Assembly: GCF_000018785.1 (NCBI RefSeq)
Contig: NC_010163.1
Coordinates: 420,001 to 452,000, forward strand
Origin: Acholeplasma laidlawii PG-8A
Lineage (GTDB): Bacteria; Bacillota_I; Bacilli_A; Acholeplasmatales; Acholeplasmataceae
Direction: 5' to 3'
Length of the DNA: 32,000 nucleotides
In this document: positions 9,859 to 17,809 of the stretch, one piece after another
How the letters are laid out: the number at the start of each line of letters is the position of its first letter
How positions within the stretch are numbered: position 1 is the stretch's first letter
Notes under the pieces: model-generated
What the model was told of the DNA's origin: nothing
Databases searched by the model: none
Seen by the model: the letters and a program-made list of their open reading frames with translations, nothing else
Position numbers and translations under genes: made by a program

Positions 9859-9935
9859 GTATCCGTAGCTTAACTGGATAAAGCATTCCCCTCCGAAGGG
9901 AAAGAGTGTCAGTTCAAACCTGATCGGATACACCA
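9859..9935 (+). tRNA. tRNA-Arg (anticodon CCG), CCA encoded
   Basis: Hand-folded cloverleaf. Acceptor stem GTATCCG/CGGATAC, D stem GCTT/AAGC, anticodon stem TTCCC/GGGAA with loop CTCCGAA (anticodon CCG), T arm GTCAG-TTCAAAC-CTGAT, and 3' ACCA. Length 77 nt. Confidence 0.9.
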
Positions 9936-9983
9936 TTATTTATTTAATTTTTGACTATTAATTAATATTTTAGAGGAATAAAA

Positions 9984-10355
9984 ATGGCTAAAAGAGTTTA
10001 TTTTGTACTGATGTTAACTTTACTAACACTTTTAATCTACTTAGTTTTTAAAATTAAGTTTATGTCATATACATCAATCGTTATCCTTACAGTAACTACA
10101 TTACTACTCGATATAGTATACACTTATAAAAATCCTAAATACAGTAAAGTATTGGTTATCTCTGATTTATTATCAATAGTGATATTTAGTGTATATATAG
10201 TATTTGCTATAAATGAAAATCCACCAGTAAATGCAGGTGATTTTTCATTATTACCAATCTTGTTATTTGTTGTATCACTTCCATTAATTATAACAACACA
10301 TCTGGCAATGAATATAAAAGTGATTTTAGACTCACAAAACAAGGTATCAAGTTGA
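9984..10355 (+). CDS. Hypothetical small membrane protein (about 4 TM helices)
   Basis: 123-aa ORF that is almost entirely hydrophobic helices. No recognisable family. Confidence 0.55.
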   Translation: MAKRVYFVLMLTLLTLLIYLVFKIKFMSYTSIVILTVTTLLLDIVYTYKNPKYSKVLVISDLLSIVIFSVYIVFAINENPPVNAGDFSLLPILLFVVSLPLIITTHLAMNIKVILDSQNKVSS

Positions 10356-10357
10356 AT

Positions 10358-10380
10358 TGACTTTGAAAAGTCGTTTTTTT
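10358..10380 (+). terminator. Weak intrinsic terminator
   Basis: Short GACT/AGTC stem followed by GTTTTTTT. An extended -10 (TGCTAAAAT, 10391-10399) follows. Confidence 0.35.
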
Positions 10381-10426
10381 GGCTCTAATGTGCTAAAATA
10401 GAACTATAAAATTTAGGGGTGACTAT

Positions 10427-11452
10427 ATGAATATATTAAATAAACTGATAAAGGAAACTAGTAAAATTGATTTCTTGTTTCCTAATACCTTTGAACAGTT
10501 GATGAATGATGAATACTACGACTATGACAAATTTGAGTGGTTTTTATATTATGTATTTAAAATGAATGGTTCAAATGTTAGAAAACTAGGTAAAAAGGGA
10601 CAGGGTGATGGTGGTGCAGATCTTATCGTCTCAGATAAACTTGCAGATGGTGGTGTAAGAAGAATTGGTATACAAGCCAAATACTGGAAGAATAAGGTTG
10701 GGGCAGGTCCTATCAATCAACTTGCAAGTGCTAAAAGCCGTCTAGATCTTACTGATTTATGGATTATCACAACATCTGATTTAACAACTGATGCAAAGGA
10801 AATCGCTGAATCCATGGATATAAAAATATTACGTGGTGAAGATGTAACAAATCTAATAGAGCATGTTAAAAGTATTTATGAGAATGATATTAAAGAAAAA
10901 GGCGATTCACCTATTGAATTTATCAAAGAGGAACCGGTTAAAGTTGATACTAAAGTAGAAGCTAAAAATGAAGATGATAATGAAGATTCTGATTTGGTCA
11001 AGAAATTTAAGACACTTAGATTACAATTGGCTAAGGAACATAAGATGTATCCTTTGTATAATGTATACAACAATGCCATGATTGATGATGTCATAGCAGC
11101 AAATCCAAAAACAAAAGAGGAACTGGCTAATGTTAAGGGATTTGGTCCACACAAGGTTAACCTATTTGGTGATGCTATTATCAAACTATTAAAAGATAAT
11201 GCAGTTACTTCTAATGAAGAAACTATCGATAAAGATAGTGAGTTATTTCAAAAACTAATTGCTGAACGTCCAAGAATCTCTAAATTTAATAAAATTCCGG
11301 TAGAAGCAGTTTACACAGATCAAGTAGCTAAGAATTTAGCTAAGATGAAACCTAAAAAGATAGAATATTTAGAAAAGATATTTGGTTTTGATAAAAAGAA
11401 TATAGAAATATTTGGAGAATACCTTGTAAACTTTATTTCCAAAAACTCTTAA
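10427..11452 (+). CDS. Mrr-type (PD-(D/E)xK) restriction-endonuclease-like domain fused to two HRDC-like domains
   Basis: The N-terminus has the Mrr_cat pattern GQGDGGADLIV...RIGIQAKYWKNKVG...LWIITTSDLTTDAKEIA. After an acidic linker come two ~65-aa HRDC-like segments: KKFKTLRLQLAKEHKMYPLYNVYNNAMIDDVIAANPKTKEELANVKGFGPHKVNLFGDAIIKLL and ELFQKLIAERPRISKFNKIPVEAVYTDQVAKNLAKMKPKKIEYLEKIFGFDKKNIEIFGEYL. Confidence 0.75.
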   Translation: MNILNKLIKETSKIDFLFPNTFEQLMNDEYYDYDKFEWFLYYVFKMNGSNVRKLGKKGQGDGGADLIVSDKLADGGVRRIGIQAKYWKNKVGAGPINQLASAKSRLDLTDLWIITTSDLTTDAKEIAESMDIKILRGEDVTNLIEHVKSIYENDIKEKGDSPIEFIKEEPVKVDTKVEAKNEDDNEDSDLVKKFKTLRLQLAKEHKMYPLYNVYNNAMIDDVIAANPKTKEELANVKGFGPHKVNLFGDAIIKLLKDNAVTSNEETIDKDSELFQKLIAERPRISKFNKIPVEAVYTDQVAKNLAKMKPKKIEYLEKIFGFDKKNIEIFGEYLVNFISKNS

Positions 11453-11506
11453 AGTTCATTACTTAATTGCCGATATTTTTAACATTTGATGTAAAAGAGG
11501 TAATAT

Positions 11507-12520
11507 ATGAAAAACTACGCTGTTATACTCAAATTTGATAAACGAAGTGAAAATCAAATCCAAAAACTAATACATAAGTTAAACAAGGAACTTGGGGTTG
11601 ATTATCTGATACCACCACATATTACACTGGGTGTTTTTCAAACTGATGATTTAGATAAATATGTAGATAAATTTAATATTTACTCAAGAAAACTAAGAAC
11701 AGGTGAAGTCATATTTGCATCTTTAGGACAGTTTGTACCTAAAGTAATTTATCTTGCACCACTTATGAATGAAGTGTTGTTATACAACCATAGTGTTATA
11801 AGTGAAATGCTTGAAGACCTTGTAGGCCAGGATGAGTTAATATCAAACTATGCACACTATCAAAAAGATCAATGGCAACCACACTGTACGCTAGGTGCTA
11901 AGTTAGACACTAAAAAGATGCTAACGGGTTTGGTTTCTATGGTTAAAGACTTTAAACCTATTATTGGTAAAATTAAAAGTGTGTCTATTGTTGAAGGTGA
12001 ACCTTATTTAGAACTACAAGCACTCTCAAAAACTATTAGGACAAAATCAGATACACATCAATTATCAACTTATTCAGTTAAGGTGATTAGCAAAATCATT
12101 GTAGAAGGCTCACCTGAGTTTACTGATAAAAACTATTCTGATGATATAAACTACTATGAAGAACAAGTTTTACTCTTTGAAGCCAACTCATCAGATGATG
12201 CTTATGAAAAAGCTGAAAGATATATGGCTAAAGTAATGCTTATTGGACCTCACAAAAATATTTATGGACAAACTGTTAGATATGAGGTTTTAGAATATGT
12301 AGATTGCTATGAGTTATTTGAAAAGCCATCTAACCAAGAACCTGAAGTATACTCAAGTATGTACTTTGTTCCTAAAGAAGTTTCTGATGAAGTGTTTTTA
12401 TCAAATCGATTTAATTACTATATTGATGATGAAGAACAGGATAAGCATGATAAGTGGGAAGATAGTAAAAGAAAAGTTATTTTAAACGCCGAATTTGAAA
12501 AACTATTTAAAATACGATAA
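11507..12520 (+). CDS. 2H (LigT-like) phosphoesterase domain fused to a DUF4288-like C-terminal domain
   Basis: Two HxTx motifs (PPHITLG and QPHCTLG) with LigT-like spacing in residues 1-175. The C-terminal ~150 aa (YSVKVISKIIVEG...YYEEQVLLFEANSSDDAYEKAERY...GQTVRYEVLEYVDCYELF) resemble DUF4288 as I remember it. Confidence 0.7.
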   Translation: MKNYAVILKFDKRSENQIQKLIHKLNKELGVDYLIPPHITLGVFQTDDLDKYVDKFNIYSRKLRTGEVIFASLGQFVPKVIYLAPLMNEVLLYNHSVISEMLEDLVGQDELISNYAHYQKDQWQPHCTLGAKLDTKKMLTGLVSMVKDFKPIIGKIKSVSIVEGEPYLELQALSKTIRTKSDTHQLSTYSVKVISKIIVEGSPEFTDKNYSDDINYYEEQVLLFEANSSDDAYEKAERYMAKVMLIGPHKNIYGQTVRYEVLEYVDCYELFEKPSNQEPEVYSSMYFVPKEVSDEVFLSNRFNYYIDDEEQDKHDKWEDSKRKVILNAEFEKLFKIR

Positions 12521-12548
12521 ATACGATCCAATCGGATTGTATTTTTAT
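12521..12548 (+). terminator. Intrinsic terminator closing the 10427-12520 operon
   Basis: 9-bp stem ATACGATCC / GGATTGTAT (one G-T pair), loop AATC, followed by TTTTTATT. Confidence 0.8.
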
Positions 12549-12610
12549 TAGAAGCATTAAACATTTACCGGTTTAGTGATAAAATAGAAGTATATGGGGA
12601 GGTTATACTT

Positions 12611-13756: not shown

Positions 13757-13782
13757 TATCTAAAATGATGTGTATTTTCAAC

Positions 13783-13811
13783 TTGCTTTCATCAAATTGC
13801 TTGTATATAAT
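13783..13811 (+). promoter_or_regulatory. Sigma-70-type promoter of the Y-polymerase/yolD operon
   Basis: TTGCTT (13783-13788), 17-nt spacer, TATAAT (13806-13811). Confidence 0.55.
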
Positions 13812-13836
13812 GAAGAAACTAGGGAGGCGAAATAAA

Positions 13837-15111
13837 ATGGAAGACCTTAAAATATACCAACTAAATAAAACAATTTTATGTATCGATCTTAAAAGTTTTT
13901 ATGCATCAGTTGAATGTGTTTTAAGAGGACTCGATCCATTTAAAACACCACTAGTTGTTGCTGATAAATCTAGGGGCGGTGGCTCTATTGTACTTGCGGT
14001 GTCACCTTACTTAAAATCTTTAGGTGTACCTTCACGCTGCAGAATATTTGAACTACCTGAGGATTTAAACATCATTTATGCAAAACCTCAGATGCAAACA
14101 TATCTAGAATATTCAGCATCAGTCATTGGCGTCTATCTAGATTTTATAAGTGAAGCTGATCTTTATGTATATTCTATTGATGAAGCATTTCTAGATTTAA
14201 CAAGTTACCTAGCATATTATAAAAAGACAGATATAGAACTTGCAGAAGAAATACTAAATACCATTACATCTAAATTAGGTTTAACTGCAACGTGTGGTAT
14301 TGGACCTAATATGATAATGTCTAAATTAAGTATGGATATTGAAGCTAAAAAGAACCCTAATAATATTGCTAAATGGAACTATGATGATATTAAAGATCAC
14401 TTATGGCCAGTGACACCACTTTCTAAAATGTGGGGGATTGGTCATCGAATGGAATCCCATTTAAATAAGCTTGGATTATTTACGATAGGAGATATCGCAA
14501 ACTATCCTAAAGAGAAGTTAAAACGTAGATTTGGTGTCTTAGGAGAAGAGTTATGGTATCACACCCATGGCATCGATCTAAGTGAAATTAAAGATAAATA
14601 TAAACTTAGAACAAAACCTAAATCATTTGGTTCTGGTCAAGTGCTATTCAGAGATTATAGTGAAACGGAAATCATGACCATTATATTAGAGATGGTAGAT
14701 GATGTAACGCGTAGACTTAGAATTGCTAAAAAGCGTGCCCAAACGATTAGTCTATCTATAGGCTATACTAAAAGTGTAGCCGGTGGTTTTTCTAGACAAG
14801 TAACGCTTGAACAACCCACATCATCTGAAGCTACCATATATCAAACATGTCAAGACTTATTTGATATGTATTATGAAGGGTATCCAATTCGTACAGTAGG
14901 TGTACACCTTTCTAAATTAACAGATAGTAAAGTATATCAATATTCATTATTTGAAGATGCACATCAGTTAGAAAAAGAATACCAACTCCATATGACAATG
15001 GATAAAATCAAACATAAATTTGGTAAAAATTCAGTTATTAGATTATCTTCTGAACAAGAACATGCAACTGCCAAACAAAGAAACAAACAAATAGGTGGCC
15101 ATCATGTATAA
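13837..15111 (+). CDS. Y-family (translesion) DNA polymerase, UvrX/DinB-like
   Basis: Motifs CIDLKSFYASVEC, SIDEAFLD and MWGIGHR. The track ORF begins at 13765, but ATG 13837 follows an AGGGAGG RBS (13821-13827) and matches the family N-terminus. Confidence 0.9.
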   Translation: MEDLKIYQLNKTILCIDLKSFYASVECVLRGLDPFKTPLVVADKSRGGGSIVLAVSPYLKSLGVPSRCRIFELPEDLNIIYAKPQMQTYLEYSASVIGVYLDFISEADLYVYSIDEAFLDLTSYLAYYKKTDIELAEEILNTITSKLGLTATCGIGPNMIMSKLSMDIEAKKNPNNIAKWNYDDIKDHLWPVTPLSKMWGIGHRMESHLNKLGLFTIGDIANYPKEKLKRRFGVLGEELWYHTHGIDLSEIKDKYKLRTKPKSFGSGQVLFRDYSETEIMTIILEMVDDVTRRLRIAKKRAQTISLSIGYTKSVAGGFSRQVTLEQPTSSEATIYQTCQDLFDMYYEGYPIRTVGVHLSKLTDSKVYQYSLFEDAHQLEKEYQLHMTMDKIKHKFGKNSVIRLSSEQEHATAKQRNKQIGGHHV

Positions 15112-15433
15112 GGATAGAGGCATTATTAAGTGGGCACCATTTGATGCATTAAATGGATTTCATGAAACAATTGAAGCCTATAAATATGAAAAAGGTAAAA
15201 AGGATAGACCAATACTTTTAGAAGATAAGTTAAATAAACTAGATGAACTACTTAAGGAAGCTATAGAAAACAGGTTAGATATTCAAATTTACTATTATTA
15301 TGACGGCTATATTAAAAATATCTATGGTCATGTTAAAAAGCTAGATCGCAATTATAGATATATGATATTGGATAATGGCATTAGATTAGCCTTAGATGAT
15401 ATTGTAGATATCATACATCTACCTAAGGATTAA
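15104..15433 (+). CDS. YolD-like protein (accessory partner of Y-family polymerases in Firmicutes)
   Basis: N-terminal YKDRGIIKWAPF motif, ~110 aa, overlapping the polymerase stop (ATGTATAA). AGGTGG RBS at 15093-15098. The track start is GTG 15095. Confidence 0.8.
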   Translation: MYKDRGIIKWAPFDALNGFHETIEAYKYEKGKKDRPILLEDKLNKLDELLKEAIENRLDIQIYYYYDGYIKNIYGHVKKLDRNYRYMILDNGIRLALDDIVDIIHLPKD

Positions 15434-15561
15434 TGATTTGATAAAAGTATAAAATGTGTAAACAGTTCACACATTTCGATTATGAAAAACGTCTTAACTG
15501 GGCAGTTTATGTTAAAAAATACACTGTGAAACGCTTACATAAAATGATTTGATAAACCGAG

Positions 15562-15590
15562 TTTACAAATCATTTTTTATGGCCTATAAT
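15562..15590 (+). promoter_or_regulatory. Promoter of the marR-ABC operon
   Basis: TTTACA (15562-15567), 17-nt spacer, TATAAT (15585-15590). Confidence 0.6.
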
Positions 15591-15607
15591 AGTTAGGTAC
15601 CTAACTA
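15590..15607 (+). promoter_or_regulatory. Perfect 18-bp palindrome, probable MarR autoregulatory operator
   Basis: TAGTTAGGTACCTAACTA is a perfect inverted repeat. It abuts the -10 hexamer and lies 4 nt upstream of the AGGAG RBS of marR. Confidence 0.6.
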
Positions 15608-15614
15608 ATAAGGA

Positions 15615-16058
15615 GTGATATCAGTGGAAAAACAACTCATAAAAGAATTGTTTATATTAACAAGTAAATTAAAAAGAATAATGGATAAAAAATATCTGGA
15701 AAATGATTTACATACTGGCCAAGCTAGAGTTTTAATGTATTTACATAGAAATCAGAGCGAGGTTGTATATCAAAAAGATATAGAAGCCTTTTTTCAAATC
15801 CGTGGTGGTACAGTCACGGGTATGATAGATACTTTACAAAATTATGAATATATTCAAAGAATAGATTCAGAGATTGATAAAAGAAAAAAACGTATTGTAT
15901 TAACACCTAAAGGTGAAGAGGTCGCATTAAGTGCGGTTAAAACAACACAAGATATGGAAAATAATATCTATGAGTTATTAACAGGTCAAGAACTTTTAGT
16001 ATTTCAAGGTGTTGTTGAAAAGATGAATAAATTTATAGATGAGGAGGAAGCAAATTGA
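15615..16058 (+). CDS. MarR-family transcriptional regulator
   Basis: About 145 aa with a winged-helix region LHTGQARVLMYLHRN...QKDIEAFFQIRGGTVTGMIDTLQNYEYIQR...DKRKKRIVLTPKG. The likely true start is GTG 15624 (AGGAG at 15611-15615). Confidence 0.85.
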   Translation: MISVEKQLIKELFILTSKLKRIMDKKYLENDLHTGQARVLMYLHRNQSEVVYQKDIEAFFQIRGGTVTGMIDTLQNYEYIQRIDSEIDKRKKRIVLTPKGEEVALSAVKTTQDMENNIYELLTGQELLVFQGVVEKMNKFIDEEEAN

Positions 16059-17809
16059 GAAAGTTATTTAAATATTTTAATACCGTTAAAAAAGAGTTGT
16101 TTCTAATTCCTATTTTAATTATTGTTGAGGTTATATTTGAAATACTTATTCCTATATTTATGAGTAAGTTAATTGATGATGGGGTAAACGCGGTAGATAG
16201 TTTTGGTGTAGCTAGTCCTAATAAAGAAGTTATTCTTTATTACGGTGCACTCATGATTATTTCAGCAGTGATTGCTTTAGTATTTGGTGTTTTAGTTACT
16301 AAAACAGCAGCTAAGGTATCTACTGAGTTTGGTCATAATCTTCGTCAAGCACAGTTTGAAAAGATTCAAACTTATTCATTTGAAAACATAGACAACTTTA
16401 AAACATCTAGTTTAATTACTAGAATGACAATGGATGTCAATATGATTCAACAATCTTTAAATATGACATTAAGAGTGGCATTAAGAGCTCCTGCATTACT
16501 GATTTTTTCTATTGGTAGTATTGCAATATTTGCAGGTACTTTAGCAGCAATATTTGTCATTGTAGTACCTATTTTAGTGATTGGGTTTTACTTGATCTTA
16601 AGCAGAGCACATAAATACTTTATTAAGATGTTTACTAAAATTGACCATTTAAACCTTACAATTCAAGAAGATTTAATCGGTATACGTACTGTAAAGTCTT
16701 TTGTAAGAGAAGATTATGAAACAAATCGTTTTGATAGAGCTACAAAAGATGTAAGAGATATATCGGTTAAAGCTGAAAAAATCATTACATTTAATAGACC
16801 ATTAATGCAATTTTCGATCGGACTAAGTTTCGTGCTTATTGGGTGGTTTGGTTCTCAAATGATGAGTATTGGTGACTTAACAGAAGGTCAGTTTGCTAAT
16901 ACAATTACATATGTAAACCAAGTATTATTTAGTTTACTCATGCTTAGTCAAATATTTTTAATGTTTGCGATGTCAAGAGCATCGATTGCTCGTATTAATG
17001 AAGTATTGGATGAAGAACCGTACTTAAAGGAAACTGAAAATCCAGTACATGACGTTCTAGATGGTTCATTTAGTTTTAATCAGGTAAGTTTTAAGTATGG
17101 ACAAATGTCAGATAAATATGTTCTAAAAGATGTGAATTTAAAAGTAGAAAGTGGATCATATGTAGGTATTTTTGGATCGACTGGTACAGGTAAATCAACT
17201 CTTGTCCAATTGCTTGCTAGACTTTATGATACAACAAGTGGAGAAGTTCTAGTGGGTGGTAAAAACGTAAAAGACTATGGTTTAGAGGCATTAAGAAAAG
17301 AAGTTATTTTAGTACTTCAAAAAAATGTATTATTTAGTGGTACGGTTCGTGAAAACATCCAGTGGGGTAAAAAAGATGCCACTGATGAAGAAATCATTCA
17401 AGTGTTAAAACAAGCCCAAGCTTATGATTTTGTGATGGCAATGGAAAAAGGATTAGACACACATATTGAACAAGGTGGTGTCAACTTAAGTGGTGGACAA
17501 CGCCAACGCTTAACGATTGCTAGAGCATTAATTGGAAGTCCTAAAATATTAATACTAGATGACTCTACATCTGCAGTAGATACTAAAACAGATGCATTAA
17601 TTAGAGAAGCATTTAGAAAAGATATGCCACATATGACAAAAGTTGTCATCAGTCAAAGATTAAGTTCAATTGAAGATGCCAATCAAATTATATTAATGGA
17701 TGAACAAGGTATCAATTCAATTGGTACACATGAAGAATTATATCAACATAATGCAATGTATAAGACGATATATGATGCACAAAGCAAATCAAAGGAGGTA
17801 GAAGAATAA
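16055..17809 (+). CDS. ABC exporter, fused permease/ATPase subunit 1 (multidrug/lipid type)
   Basis: Six-TM domain plus an NBD with Walker A GSTGTGKST, signature LSGGQRQR and Walker B ILILDDSTS. TTG start overlaps the marR TGA (TTGA), preceded by GAGGAGG. Confidence 0.9.
   Translation: MRKLFKYFNTVKKELFLIPILIIVEVIFEILIPIFMSKLIDDGVNAVDSFGVASPNKEVILYYGALMIISAVIALVFGVLVTKTAAKVSTEFGHNLRQAQFEKIQTYSFENIDNFKTSSLITRMTMDVNMIQQSLNMTLRVALRAPALLIFSIGSIAIFAGTLAAIFVIVVPILVIGFYLILSRAHKYFIKMFTKIDHLNLTIQEDLIGIRTVKSFVREDYETNRFDRATKDVRDISVKAEKIITFNRPLMQFSIGLSFVLIGWFGSQMMSIGDLTEGQFANTITYVNQVLFSLLMLSQIFLMFAMSRASIARINEVLDEEPYLKETENPVHDVLDGSFSFNQVSFKYGQMSDKYVLKDVNLKVESGSYVGIFGSTGTGKSTLVQLLARLYDTTSGEVLVGGKNVKDYGLEALRKEVILVLQKNVLFSGTVRENIQWGKKDATDEEIIQVLKQAQAYDFVMAMEKGLDTHIEQGGVNLSGGQRQRLTIARALIGSPKILILDDSTSAVDTKTDALIREAFRKDMPHMTKVVISQRLSSIEDANQIILMDEQGINSIGTHEELYQHNAMYKTIYDAQSKSKEVEE

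Follow-up and report, generated by a model that had tools for sequence, protein, structure and literature searches.

Type IV restriction enzymes such as Mrr, MspJI and AspBHI are single polypeptides that combine a PD-(D/E)xK Mrr_cat core, marked by a D...QxK signature, with an N-terminal winged helix or an SRA-like reader of modified bases. The HRDC fold occurs in RecQ, BLM, WRN and RNase D, where it accompanies a helicase core (RecQ) or a 3'-5' exonuclease core (RNase D). The 2H phosphoesterases share a fold with two HxT motifs and include Arabidopsis CPDase, which is an ADP-ribose-1'',2''-cyclic-phosphate phosphodiesterase, as well as YjcG, LigT/ThpR and AKAP18. Viral members act as erasers, among them the anti-CBASS protein Acb1, the poxvirus cGAMP phosphodiesterase (PDE) and the 2'-5'A phosphodiesterases rotavirus VP3 and coronavirus ns2. 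CBASS, Pycsar, Thoeris and type III CRISPR join a signal enzyme to a sensor-bearing effector. The present analysis concerns two adjacent genes in a 32,000-nt stretch of the Acholeplasma laidlawii PG-8A chromosome (contig NC_010163.1, positions 420,001 to 452,000 of the forward strand; hereafter the window). Gene 1 encodes an Mrr-type nuclease with two HRDC modules, and gene 2 encodes a 2H phosphoesterase fused to a DUF4288 domain. An exact sequence look-up on this 1.50 Mb contig identified the two proteins as ABX81032.1 and ABX81033.1.

A preliminary description of this locus had proposed a two-gene defence module with nucleotide-signalling logic. Instead, the locus is best read as a small strain-variable slot, in which two functionally independent accessory genes share one transcript and have the separate functions proposed below; the probability of this reading is estimated at about 75%. 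The pairing is thus regarded as an accident of cassette capture in one lineage, which is worth recording because the layout of the operon by itself points to a new defence system. What the locus offers are two uncharacterised architectures from defence islands, neither surprising in kind: an Mrr nuclease with HRDC only as its DNA-binding modules, and a rare 2H-DUF4288 fusion.

Separate occurrence of the two genes and the cassette slot

In a tblastn comparison, a gene 1 relative of full or near full length was present in 22 loci whose flanks contain no gene 2 relative (L001-L007, L009, L010, L012-L015, L017, L018, L021-L023, L027-L029); six others have the gene 2 fusion but lack a gene 1 relative (L016, L019, L030-L033). 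The exact pair was observed on 17 contigs, always in the same context of the PG-8A-type lineage, and these therefore represent one inherited clonal haplotype. Five sister A. laidlawii contigs (L017, L018, L027, which is CP103951.1, L028 and L029) show full synteny to the window and have 95-98% identical flanks. They retain gene 1 at 96% identity and lack gene 2; gene 1 therefore needs no gene 2 antidote. The gene 1-only loci, the gene 2-only loci and the replacement in the sister strains together identify two separate accessory genes rather than a two-gene defence system, and the pairing is confined to one A. laidlawii haplotype.

The strain-variable slot spans 11461-12505 on the plus strand, as defined by blastn breakpoints and junction alignments; it begins 8 nt past the stop codon of gene 1 and ends 15 nt short of that of gene 2. 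It is occupied by gene 2 in the window and by an insert of ~707 nt with an unrelated 146-aa open reading frame (ORF) in the five sister contigs. On the left side, the identity of gene 1 to L017 is 98-100% up to 11132 (the first ~700 nt) and 86-91% over its 3' third (11133-11460, plus strand), where the amino-acid changes are conservative only. On the right side, the two haplotypes are identical from 12521 on, save two substitutions in the terminator hairpin (12525 in the stem and 12530 in the loop). The jump in divergence from 0-2% to 9-14% at 11133 and the return to identity near the terminator therefore indicate a homologous-recombination tract, whose left part is the diverged end of gene 1 and whose left crossover lies inside that gene. 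The alternative 146-aa protein has an N-terminal hydrophobic segment; it was considered as an analogue of gene 2 and rejected, since it matches no Pfam family and is not similar to gene 2. ORFs of 146 aa also lie near the gene 2 orthologues in L032 and L033, and these are unrelated to the sister-strain protein.

In its conserved flanks, its alternative strain cargo and a recombination tract that reaches the flanking gene, the slot resembles defence-island hotspots, and its cargo families occur among defence genes elsewhere. It differs in holding one gene only, in lacking an integrase and flanking repeats, and in its housekeeping surroundings.

Gene 2 behaves as a unit of its own in other genomes. 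A 61%-identical orthologue from another Acholeplasma-like lineage forms a unit of ~1.2 kb (the coding sequence with ~120 nt upstream and 45-130 nt downstream), which is 96-99% identical in nucleotides in three unrelated neighbourhoods (L030, L032 and L033); gene 2 is therefore a mobile single-gene cassette. Strain CP103951.1 contains a gene 2-like copy of 57% identity ~60 kb from gene 1 (L016 7857-8861; contig 495702-512562), where the genes for two large serine recombinases and an MmeI-type enzyme immediately precede it. An in-frame stop follows just after its first HxT motif (PPHMTL*), and a mobile element probably carries this copy as a decaying cargo gene.

Both genes lie on the plus strand, gene 1 (341 aa) at 10427-11452 and gene 2 (337 aa) at 11507-12520. 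An extended -10 element, TGCTAAAAT (10391-10399, plus strand), was read directly from the sequence upstream of gene 1. The stretch from 10368 to the gene 1 start codon, which includes this element and the ribosome-binding site, is 100% conserved in four strains (the window, L017, L027 and L028). The element lacks a matching -35 hexamer and was therefore not listed by a consensus promoter scan. No significant fold was seen in the 54-nt intergenic spacer (z -0.7). The sole consensus match for an internal gene 2 promoter, TTAACA-16-TAATAT (11479-11506), abuts the ATG and was rejected; as it ends one base before the start codon, it could not drive a translatable gene 2 mRNA. The intrinsic terminator (12519-12549, plus strand) consists of an 11-bp hairpin (12519-12544) and a U-tract, with -11.8 kcal/mol and z -4.4. 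It begins within the gene 2 stop codon and is common to both haplotypes; the L017 copy reaches -12.1 kcal/mol, with an A-U pair where the window has a G.U wobble. The conserved promoter, the unstructured gap and the single terminator therefore lend credibility to the terminator-bounded two-gene unit of the preliminary description, and co-transcription of the two genes is probable. Gene 2 would owe this only to the recombination that placed it between the gene 1 stop codon and the terminator.

The same arrangement could be viewed as a functional two-component module, with the nuclease as effector and the 2H enzyme making, destroying or resetting an RNA-end or nucleotide signal, or acting as antidote. 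The likely co-transcription, an arrangement fixed in 17 contigs and the occurrence of both families in defence islands are consistent with such a module; 2H enzymes can also degrade immune nucleotide signals, and the gene 2 model resembles Acb1 and the poxvirus cGAMP PDE in fold. However, the two genes do not co-occur beyond the haplotype (22 gene 1-only and six gene 2-only loci), the five sister contigs keep gene 1 without gene 2, gene 2 orthologues travel alone, and PADLOC contains no such gene pair. No signal-making enzyme (CD-NTase, cyclase, TIR or Cas10) was detected by Pfam among ORFs of at least 100 aa in the window, and neither Pfam nor Foldseek detected a SAVED, CARF, SLOG, STING or Macro sensor domain in gene 1. 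Both parts of the CBASS, Pycsar, Thoeris and type III CRISPR designs are thus missing. A test for the co-variation seen in toxin-antitoxin or nuclease-immunity pairs also failed, with an unrelated downstream gene beside gene 1 in the sister strains and neighbours of all kinds beside the distant relatives. Lack of synteny beyond this genome is an outcome that the preliminary description had itself named as refuting its idea. A two-component module is thus very improbable, and the signalling logic proposed earlier is not supported.

The Mrr-HRDC protein encoded by gene 1

Checks with hidden Markov models bore out the domain calls that had been made for gene 1 from the sequence alone. The Mrr_cat core (residues 33-144; 10523-10858, plus strand) was detected by Pfam with an E-value of 9.6e-18 and 64.8 bits against a cut-off of 21. 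The motifs GDGGADLIV, IGIQAKYW and IITTSDLTTDAKEIA are present in the translation, and the catalytic set comprises E37, D65 and Q83-A-K85. Among 27 gene 1 relatives, down to 30% identity, D65, Q83 and K85 never vary, and conservation of E37 is at least 90%; therefore, the nuclease looks active. The NA-iREase1 model, which describes inactive enzymes, stays under its cut-off. In the AlphaFold model, with a predicted local distance difference test (pLDDT) score of 87.7, residues 1-32 form a short helical lead-in, and the acidic linker (residues 172-186), also recognised earlier, is a low-confidence stretch. The nuclease part is best matched in Foldseek by the nuclease domains of MspJI and AspBHI; weaker fold matches include Hjc resolvase and EndoMS/NucS.

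The remainder of the protein is formed by two HRDC modules (approximately residues 189-261 and 269-340; 10991-11446, plus strand), which were identified by Pfam (E 1.8e-21, 76.3 bits, two stretches), PDB profile matches and Foldseek. The first module matches RecQ and BLM in the PDB profiles and superimposes on the Deinococcus radiodurans RecQ HRDC with a root-mean-square deviation of 1.1 A (1.1-1.6 A for RecQ HRDC structures, ~30% identity). The second matches the WRN HRDC over residues 265-324. The Mrr_cat core, the linker and the HRDC pair cover the whole protein.

Compared with the type IV enzymes, gene 1 exhibits certain discrepancies. Neither an Mrr_N winged helix nor an SRA reader domain was detected by Pfam, and the structural match to MspJI covers the nuclease part alone. 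Two C-terminal HRDC modules are found instead, and the domain order is reversed, with the nuclease first. Conversely, gene 1 lacks the cores of the classical HRDC proteins and joins its HRDC to an endonuclease. The NCBIfam models recQ (TIGR01389) and rnd match at their HRDC ends only, far below cut-off (recQ by its last ~85 positions, with 67 bits against a cut-off of 640), and no superfamily 2 helicase core or DEDD exonuclease core was found with NCBIfam.

From the intact catalytic core and the HRDC pair as sole nucleic-acid-binding equipment, we infer an HRDC-directed, stand-alone DNA endonuclease of the Mrr type, in which the HRDC pair replaces the usual winged-helix or SRA reader. Through this pair, the enzyme may be targeted to DNA that is single-stranded or branched, for instance intermediates of phage replication or recombination. 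Gene 1 would then act as a single-gene, type IV-like defence nuclease; any such defence function would depend on recognition of DNA structure and not of modification.

The family is small, with 78 homologue clusters among 5.8 billion, which occur in Acholeplasmataceae, Erysipelotrichia, Bacilli and Izimaplasma metagenome-assembled genomes (MAGs). PADLOC v2.0.0 has no full-length model for gene 1 and matches it only at the domain level (the HRDC end of DpdF, the nuclease end of ZorD, and mREase_IV); eight relatives likewise have no full-length model. In the literature searched, no paper links HRDC to an Mrr nuclease in defence. In an Acholeplasma sp. MAG (L007 7974-8925), the gene 1 relative aligns as two overlapping pieces in different frames, with a longest ORF of 179 aa, and is likely a frameshifted pseudogene or an assembly error.

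Relatives of gene 1 sit among restriction genes. Their neighbours include a full-length SauUSI-like type IV enzyme (L006, 1.5e-107), a complete Lamassu-like PDC-M46A/B pair (1e-106 and 1e-127; L009 and L015), HsdR (4.6e-110) or type I restriction-modification genes (L012, L034 and L035), an OLD-family nuclease (L034), GmrSD (L036, GmrSD_C) and SLFN-type helicases (L035 and L036). UvrD, SF1 and RecQ-UvrD fusion helicases were found in L010, L013 and L014. By a strict count, at least seven of the 15 long-context loci have defence or restriction neighbours, and the number rises to 10 of 15 when helicases with partial defence-model matches are counted. A SIR2-HerA system and a NUDIX gene lie shortly upstream of one gene 2 orthologue. 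Both families, each separately, are frequent in defence islands, and the earlier view of the two as accessory, conflict-type genes is retained in this form.

The main rival for the function of gene 1 is a nuclease of DNA repair or recombination, whose HRDC modules would recognise forks, D-loops and Holliday junctions as in RecQ and BLM. The affinity of these modules to RecQ, BLM and WRN favours such a role, as do the weaker matches to Hjc and EndoMS/NucS, a single fixed locus in all A. laidlawii contigs seen, a position two genes from a polY/YolD translesion pair, and five of the 15 long-context loci without defence neighbours. Conversely, the patchy and small distribution, a context that differs in almost every genome, the best nuclease-domain matches to modification-dependent restriction enzymes, the apparent frameshift in L007 and the full-length or canonical restriction and defence neighbours counted above all argue against it. 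A repair function is therefore considered unlikely, albeit the most serious competitor to the single-gene defence nuclease that we prefer.

Three further neighbourhoods of gene 1 relatives were recorded. In L009 (5161-8930) and L015 (5404-8762), Mrr-HRDC relatives of 32-37% identity lie directly 3' of PDC-M46A/B (LmuA/LmuB-like), which suggests a conserved three-gene arrangement in Haploplasma modicum and a Clostridia MAG. This Lamassu-like PADLOC candidate adjoins distant relatives in two of the 15 long-context loci; the window has no such genes, and the Mrr-HRDC protein matches no PDC-M46 model. SLFN-g3/DUF2075-type helicases are located just upstream of ~55%-identical gene 1 relatives on unrelated contigs (L035 4971-6749 and L036 651-2522), one of them with a faint GIY-YIG match. 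Genes for Fic-domain proteins, 29-34% identical to each other, follow gene 1 relatives at a distance of one or two genes in L001 (9755-10810), L014 (10221-11273) and L021 (9405-9860).

The 2H-DUF4288 protein encoded by gene 2

Gene 2 comprises a 2H domain (residues 1-172) and a DUF4288 domain (residues 188-283) that is followed by a C-terminal helix. Both assignments of the preliminary description were upheld, the first by structure rather than by profile. DUF4288 (PF14119) was detected by Pfam over profile positions 1-84 of 84 (E 1.5e-23, 83.3 bits against a cut-off of 27), and the 2_5_RNA_ligase2 match is borderline, with 26.4 bits just below the cut-off of 27. Foldseek confirmed a 2H fold for the N-terminal half, with Arabidopsis CPDase as the best match (E 3e-6, template modelling (TM) score 0.72) and further matches to YjcG, AKAP18, a phage PDE, the poxvirus cGAMP PDE, LigT and Acb1. 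The two HxT motifs are H38-I-T40 and H126-C-T128 (HITL and HCTL). H126 and T128 are invariant among the gene 2 relatives, and the first HxT is kept in every sequence that covers this region.

CPDase, YjcG, LigT/ThpR and AKAP18 share the two HxT motifs and the 2H fold with gene 2 at target-normalised TM scores of 0.56-0.72, with only 10-17% identity, and none of them carries a C-terminal DUF4288. The match to LigT is at the fold level only (E 0.02-0.06, 9-11% identity), and no NCBIfam family, LigT/ThpR included, was found for gene 2 at E up to 1. The viral erasers are equally distant in sequence (12-16% identity): Acb1 reaches TM scores of 0.64-0.67 at the fold level only, with 12-13% identity, and the penguinpox cGAMP PDE adds a weak sequence match (E 0.017) to its likeness in fold. 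In contrast to these proteins, gene 2 is chromosomal and not phage-borne. It has no match in 50,697 phage records and one partial match of 30% in IMG/VR. A phage or plasmid origin of either gene was rejected, since phage and plasmid sequences searched with tblastn, and IMG/VR scanned with patterns, gave only partial matches to single domains. PADLOC v2.0.0 has no match for gene 2.

The 2H-DUF4288 fusion is very rare. Gene 2 homologues form five clusters, and an exhaustive HMMER scan of 1.84 billion representatives gave 730 matches. Among the best 150 of these 730, one other 50%-identity cluster (P0081) spans both domains, and all others contain one domain by itself, either 2H (~175 aa) or DUF4288 (~120-160 aa). 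A. hippikon has the 2H half alone, with 44% identity to gene 2.

DUF4288 has partners other than 2H. It is fused N-terminally to a Macro domain in P0180 (329 aa) and occurs as a tandem duplicate in P0204 (301 aa). Alignment of gene 2 with 29 relatives gave the signature WYxVK...GxP...D...EE...AxSF...AE...NxYGQxV...DCY...EVYS. The 2H and Macro enzymes catalyse consecutive steps in the processing of ADPr>P and ADPr-1''P, where ADPr is ADP-ribose (PMC9503650). The alternative Macro partner thus hints at ADP-ribose or cyclic-phosphate chemistry.

Given the intact active site, the closest folds and a Macro domain that acts on the next intermediate, gene 2 is predicted to be a cyclic phosphodiesterase for RNA with a cyclic-phosphate end or for an ADPr-derived nucleotide. 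It would open a cyclic phosphate, at the 2',3' positions of an RNA end or at the 1'',2'' positions of an ADP-ribose derivative, or it may cleave a 2'-5'-linked or cyclic oligonucleotide; DUF4288 would serve as its substrate- or partner-binding module. In a more ambitious version, DUF4288 is a new sensor or binder of ADP-ribose-derived or cyclic-phosphate nucleotides that recruits erasers (2H here, Macro in P0180). The 2H-DUF4288 protein would then be a mobile single-gene modulator of NAD/ADPr immunity, and the Mrr-HRDC protein a new single-gene defence nuclease that reads DNA structure, not modification. We regard this version as improbable.

A simpler role is also conceivable, in which gene 2 encodes a YjcG/LigT-type enzyme with housekeeping duties, healing RNA ends or clearing ADPr>P, and has no part in conflict. 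Standalone 2H relatives (28-45% identity, ~175 aa) are numerous, their contexts, as on Clostridium butyricum megaplasmids, are unremarkable, and the fold is like that of B. subtilis YjcG and E. coli LigT. Such a role is difficult to reconcile with the absence of gene 2 from the sister strains and its pseudogene in one of them, with a fusion limited to two 50%-identity clusters among the best 150 of 730 matches, with movement between defence islands at 96-99% identity, and with the missing NCBIfam LigT/ThpR match. A purely housekeeping function consequently appears doubtful, at a level similar to that of the ambitious version.

On Priestia plasmids, DUF4288 genes without a fusion partner are found within arrays of small genes; an ankyrin-repeat gene immediately precedes them in two of five loci, and two SMI1/KNR4 (SUKH) genes accompany them in one of five. 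In the field of polymorphic toxins, ankyrin-repeat and SUKH neighbours are typical of polyimmunity loci. Gene 2 might accordingly be an immunity or antidote protein, in which DUF4288 binds and the fused 2H, or elsewhere Macro, enzyme reverses the damage done by a competitor's RNase or ADP-ribosylating toxin. The fusion of DUF4288 to two damage-reversing enzymes and the behaviour of gene 2 as a solo mobile cassette agree with this possibility. Against it, ten small neighbours of the standalone DUF4288 genes gave no Pfam match at the gathering score, hence no immunity family, and only a sub-threshold TPR match. Three of the five plasmid contexts are unremarkable, and no toxin gene was found beside any gene 2 orthologue among the loci examined. 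The conserved polar residues of DUF4288 (K, D, E-E, N, Y, Q, E and S) also fit a ligand-binding or catalytic role. An immunity function is as poorly favoured as a housekeeping one, and the cyclic phosphodiesterase with a DUF4288 binding module is preferred.

Several observations weigh against the reading of two independent genes with these functions. Within one lineage (17 contigs) the pair is inherited stably, and no terminator or convincing promoter separates gene 1 from gene 2, so that the genes may cooperate in a lineage-specific manner. Since the recombination tract includes the 3' end of gene 1, one haplotype must have arrived with a gene 1 copy already attached, and the junction is thus somewhat older than any single strain. 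A defence role for gene 1 is drawn from its neighbourhood only, and five of the 15 long-context loci have ordinary or ambiguous neighbours. For gene 2, the structural model is only moderately confident (pLDDT 66.8), DUF4288 has no structural precedent in Foldseek, and no paper with 'DUF4288' or 'PF14119' was found in the literature searched.

Two further features were noted around gene 2 orthologues. An intergenic repeat of ~100 nt with iterated (T)GAGTAA motifs occurs in the non-laidlawii Acholeplasma-like lineage (L030 6605-6707, 7883-7986 and 9041-9137; L032 6675-6778, 7884-7985 and 9952-10056; L033 3162-3273, 7883-7984 and 9041-9135; L019 24-109) and is absent from the window. It precedes several different small cassette genes (NUDIX, a gene of 146 aa, the orthologue of gene 2, a gene of 62 aa and one for a 265-aa membrane protein) and looks like a shared promoter/operator or a cassette-boundary element. 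A DUF6933 gene, 77% identical over 515 nt between L016 (3666-4180) and L030 (13699-14213), lies less than ~5 kb from the 2H-DUF4288 gene in two lineages, upstream in one case and downstream in the other.

Chromosomal surroundings of the unit

Overall, the window is a housekeeping stretch of chromosome. Upstream of the pair are genes for an ECF transporter, enolase, MGS, RNase R, SmpB, a patatin, PAP2 and GNAT proteins, a tRNA-Arg and a 123-aa ORF; downstream are a PfkB kinase gene, the polY/YolD pair, MarR and two ABC transporters. Pfam comparison of ORFs of at least 100 aa detected no integrase, phage gene or known defence gene in the window. A prophage or integrative-island origin was considered and rejected: integrase and phage genes are lacking, and no direct repeats of the tRNA 3' end or other flanking repeats surround the pair.

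The tRNA-Arg (CCG) gene (9859-9935, plus strand; ARAGORN, Rfam tRNA 64 bits) is the left landmark of the strain-variable region and occupies the same relative place in L027. It is the only RNA element that Rfam detected in the intergenic regions. The preliminary description had placed the pair immediately after it; the tRNA is present, but the 123-aa ORF (9984-10355, plus strand), which does not belong to the operon and has its own hairpin and T-run, intervenes. This ORF, taken from the ORF list, has no Pfam family, and its product, hydrophobic by eye, is probably a membrane protein. It is 92% identical in L017, L018 and L028 and left only as a remnant in L027; its 3' end is a divergent patch of 87-89% nucleotide identity. 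The hairpin GACTT-TGAA-AAGTC, followed by G and T7 (10359-10380, plus strand), was seen in a fold of 10356-10426 and is conserved in four strains. It is the predicted terminator of the 123-aa ORF and would set the transcription unit of gene 1 apart.

The polY/YolD pair (13765-15433) had been described as a prophage-type cassette next door. The pair exists, but the PfkB kinase gene lies between it and the operon, it is kept in all strains examined, and no phage genes surround it.

The interval from tRNA-Arg to PfkB is strain-variable. Between tRNA-Arg and gene 1 (9859-10426 in the window, 3287-6000 in L027), five extra small genes are present in L027, one of them with a LytTR domain. Farther downstream, two patches (15506-16005 and 16256-16505) are 94-96% identical between the window and L017 against a background of ~99.5%; they cover the gene for MarR and the beginning of the first ABC transporter gene, which suggests mosaic recombination along this stretch of chromosome. 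A 19-nt motif, GTG(C/A)TAAAATAGAA(C/G)TATA, is common to the promoter/5' leader regions of gene 1 (10390-10408) and the PfkB kinase gene (12576-12594); the two copies are 89% identical, and both contain an extended -10.

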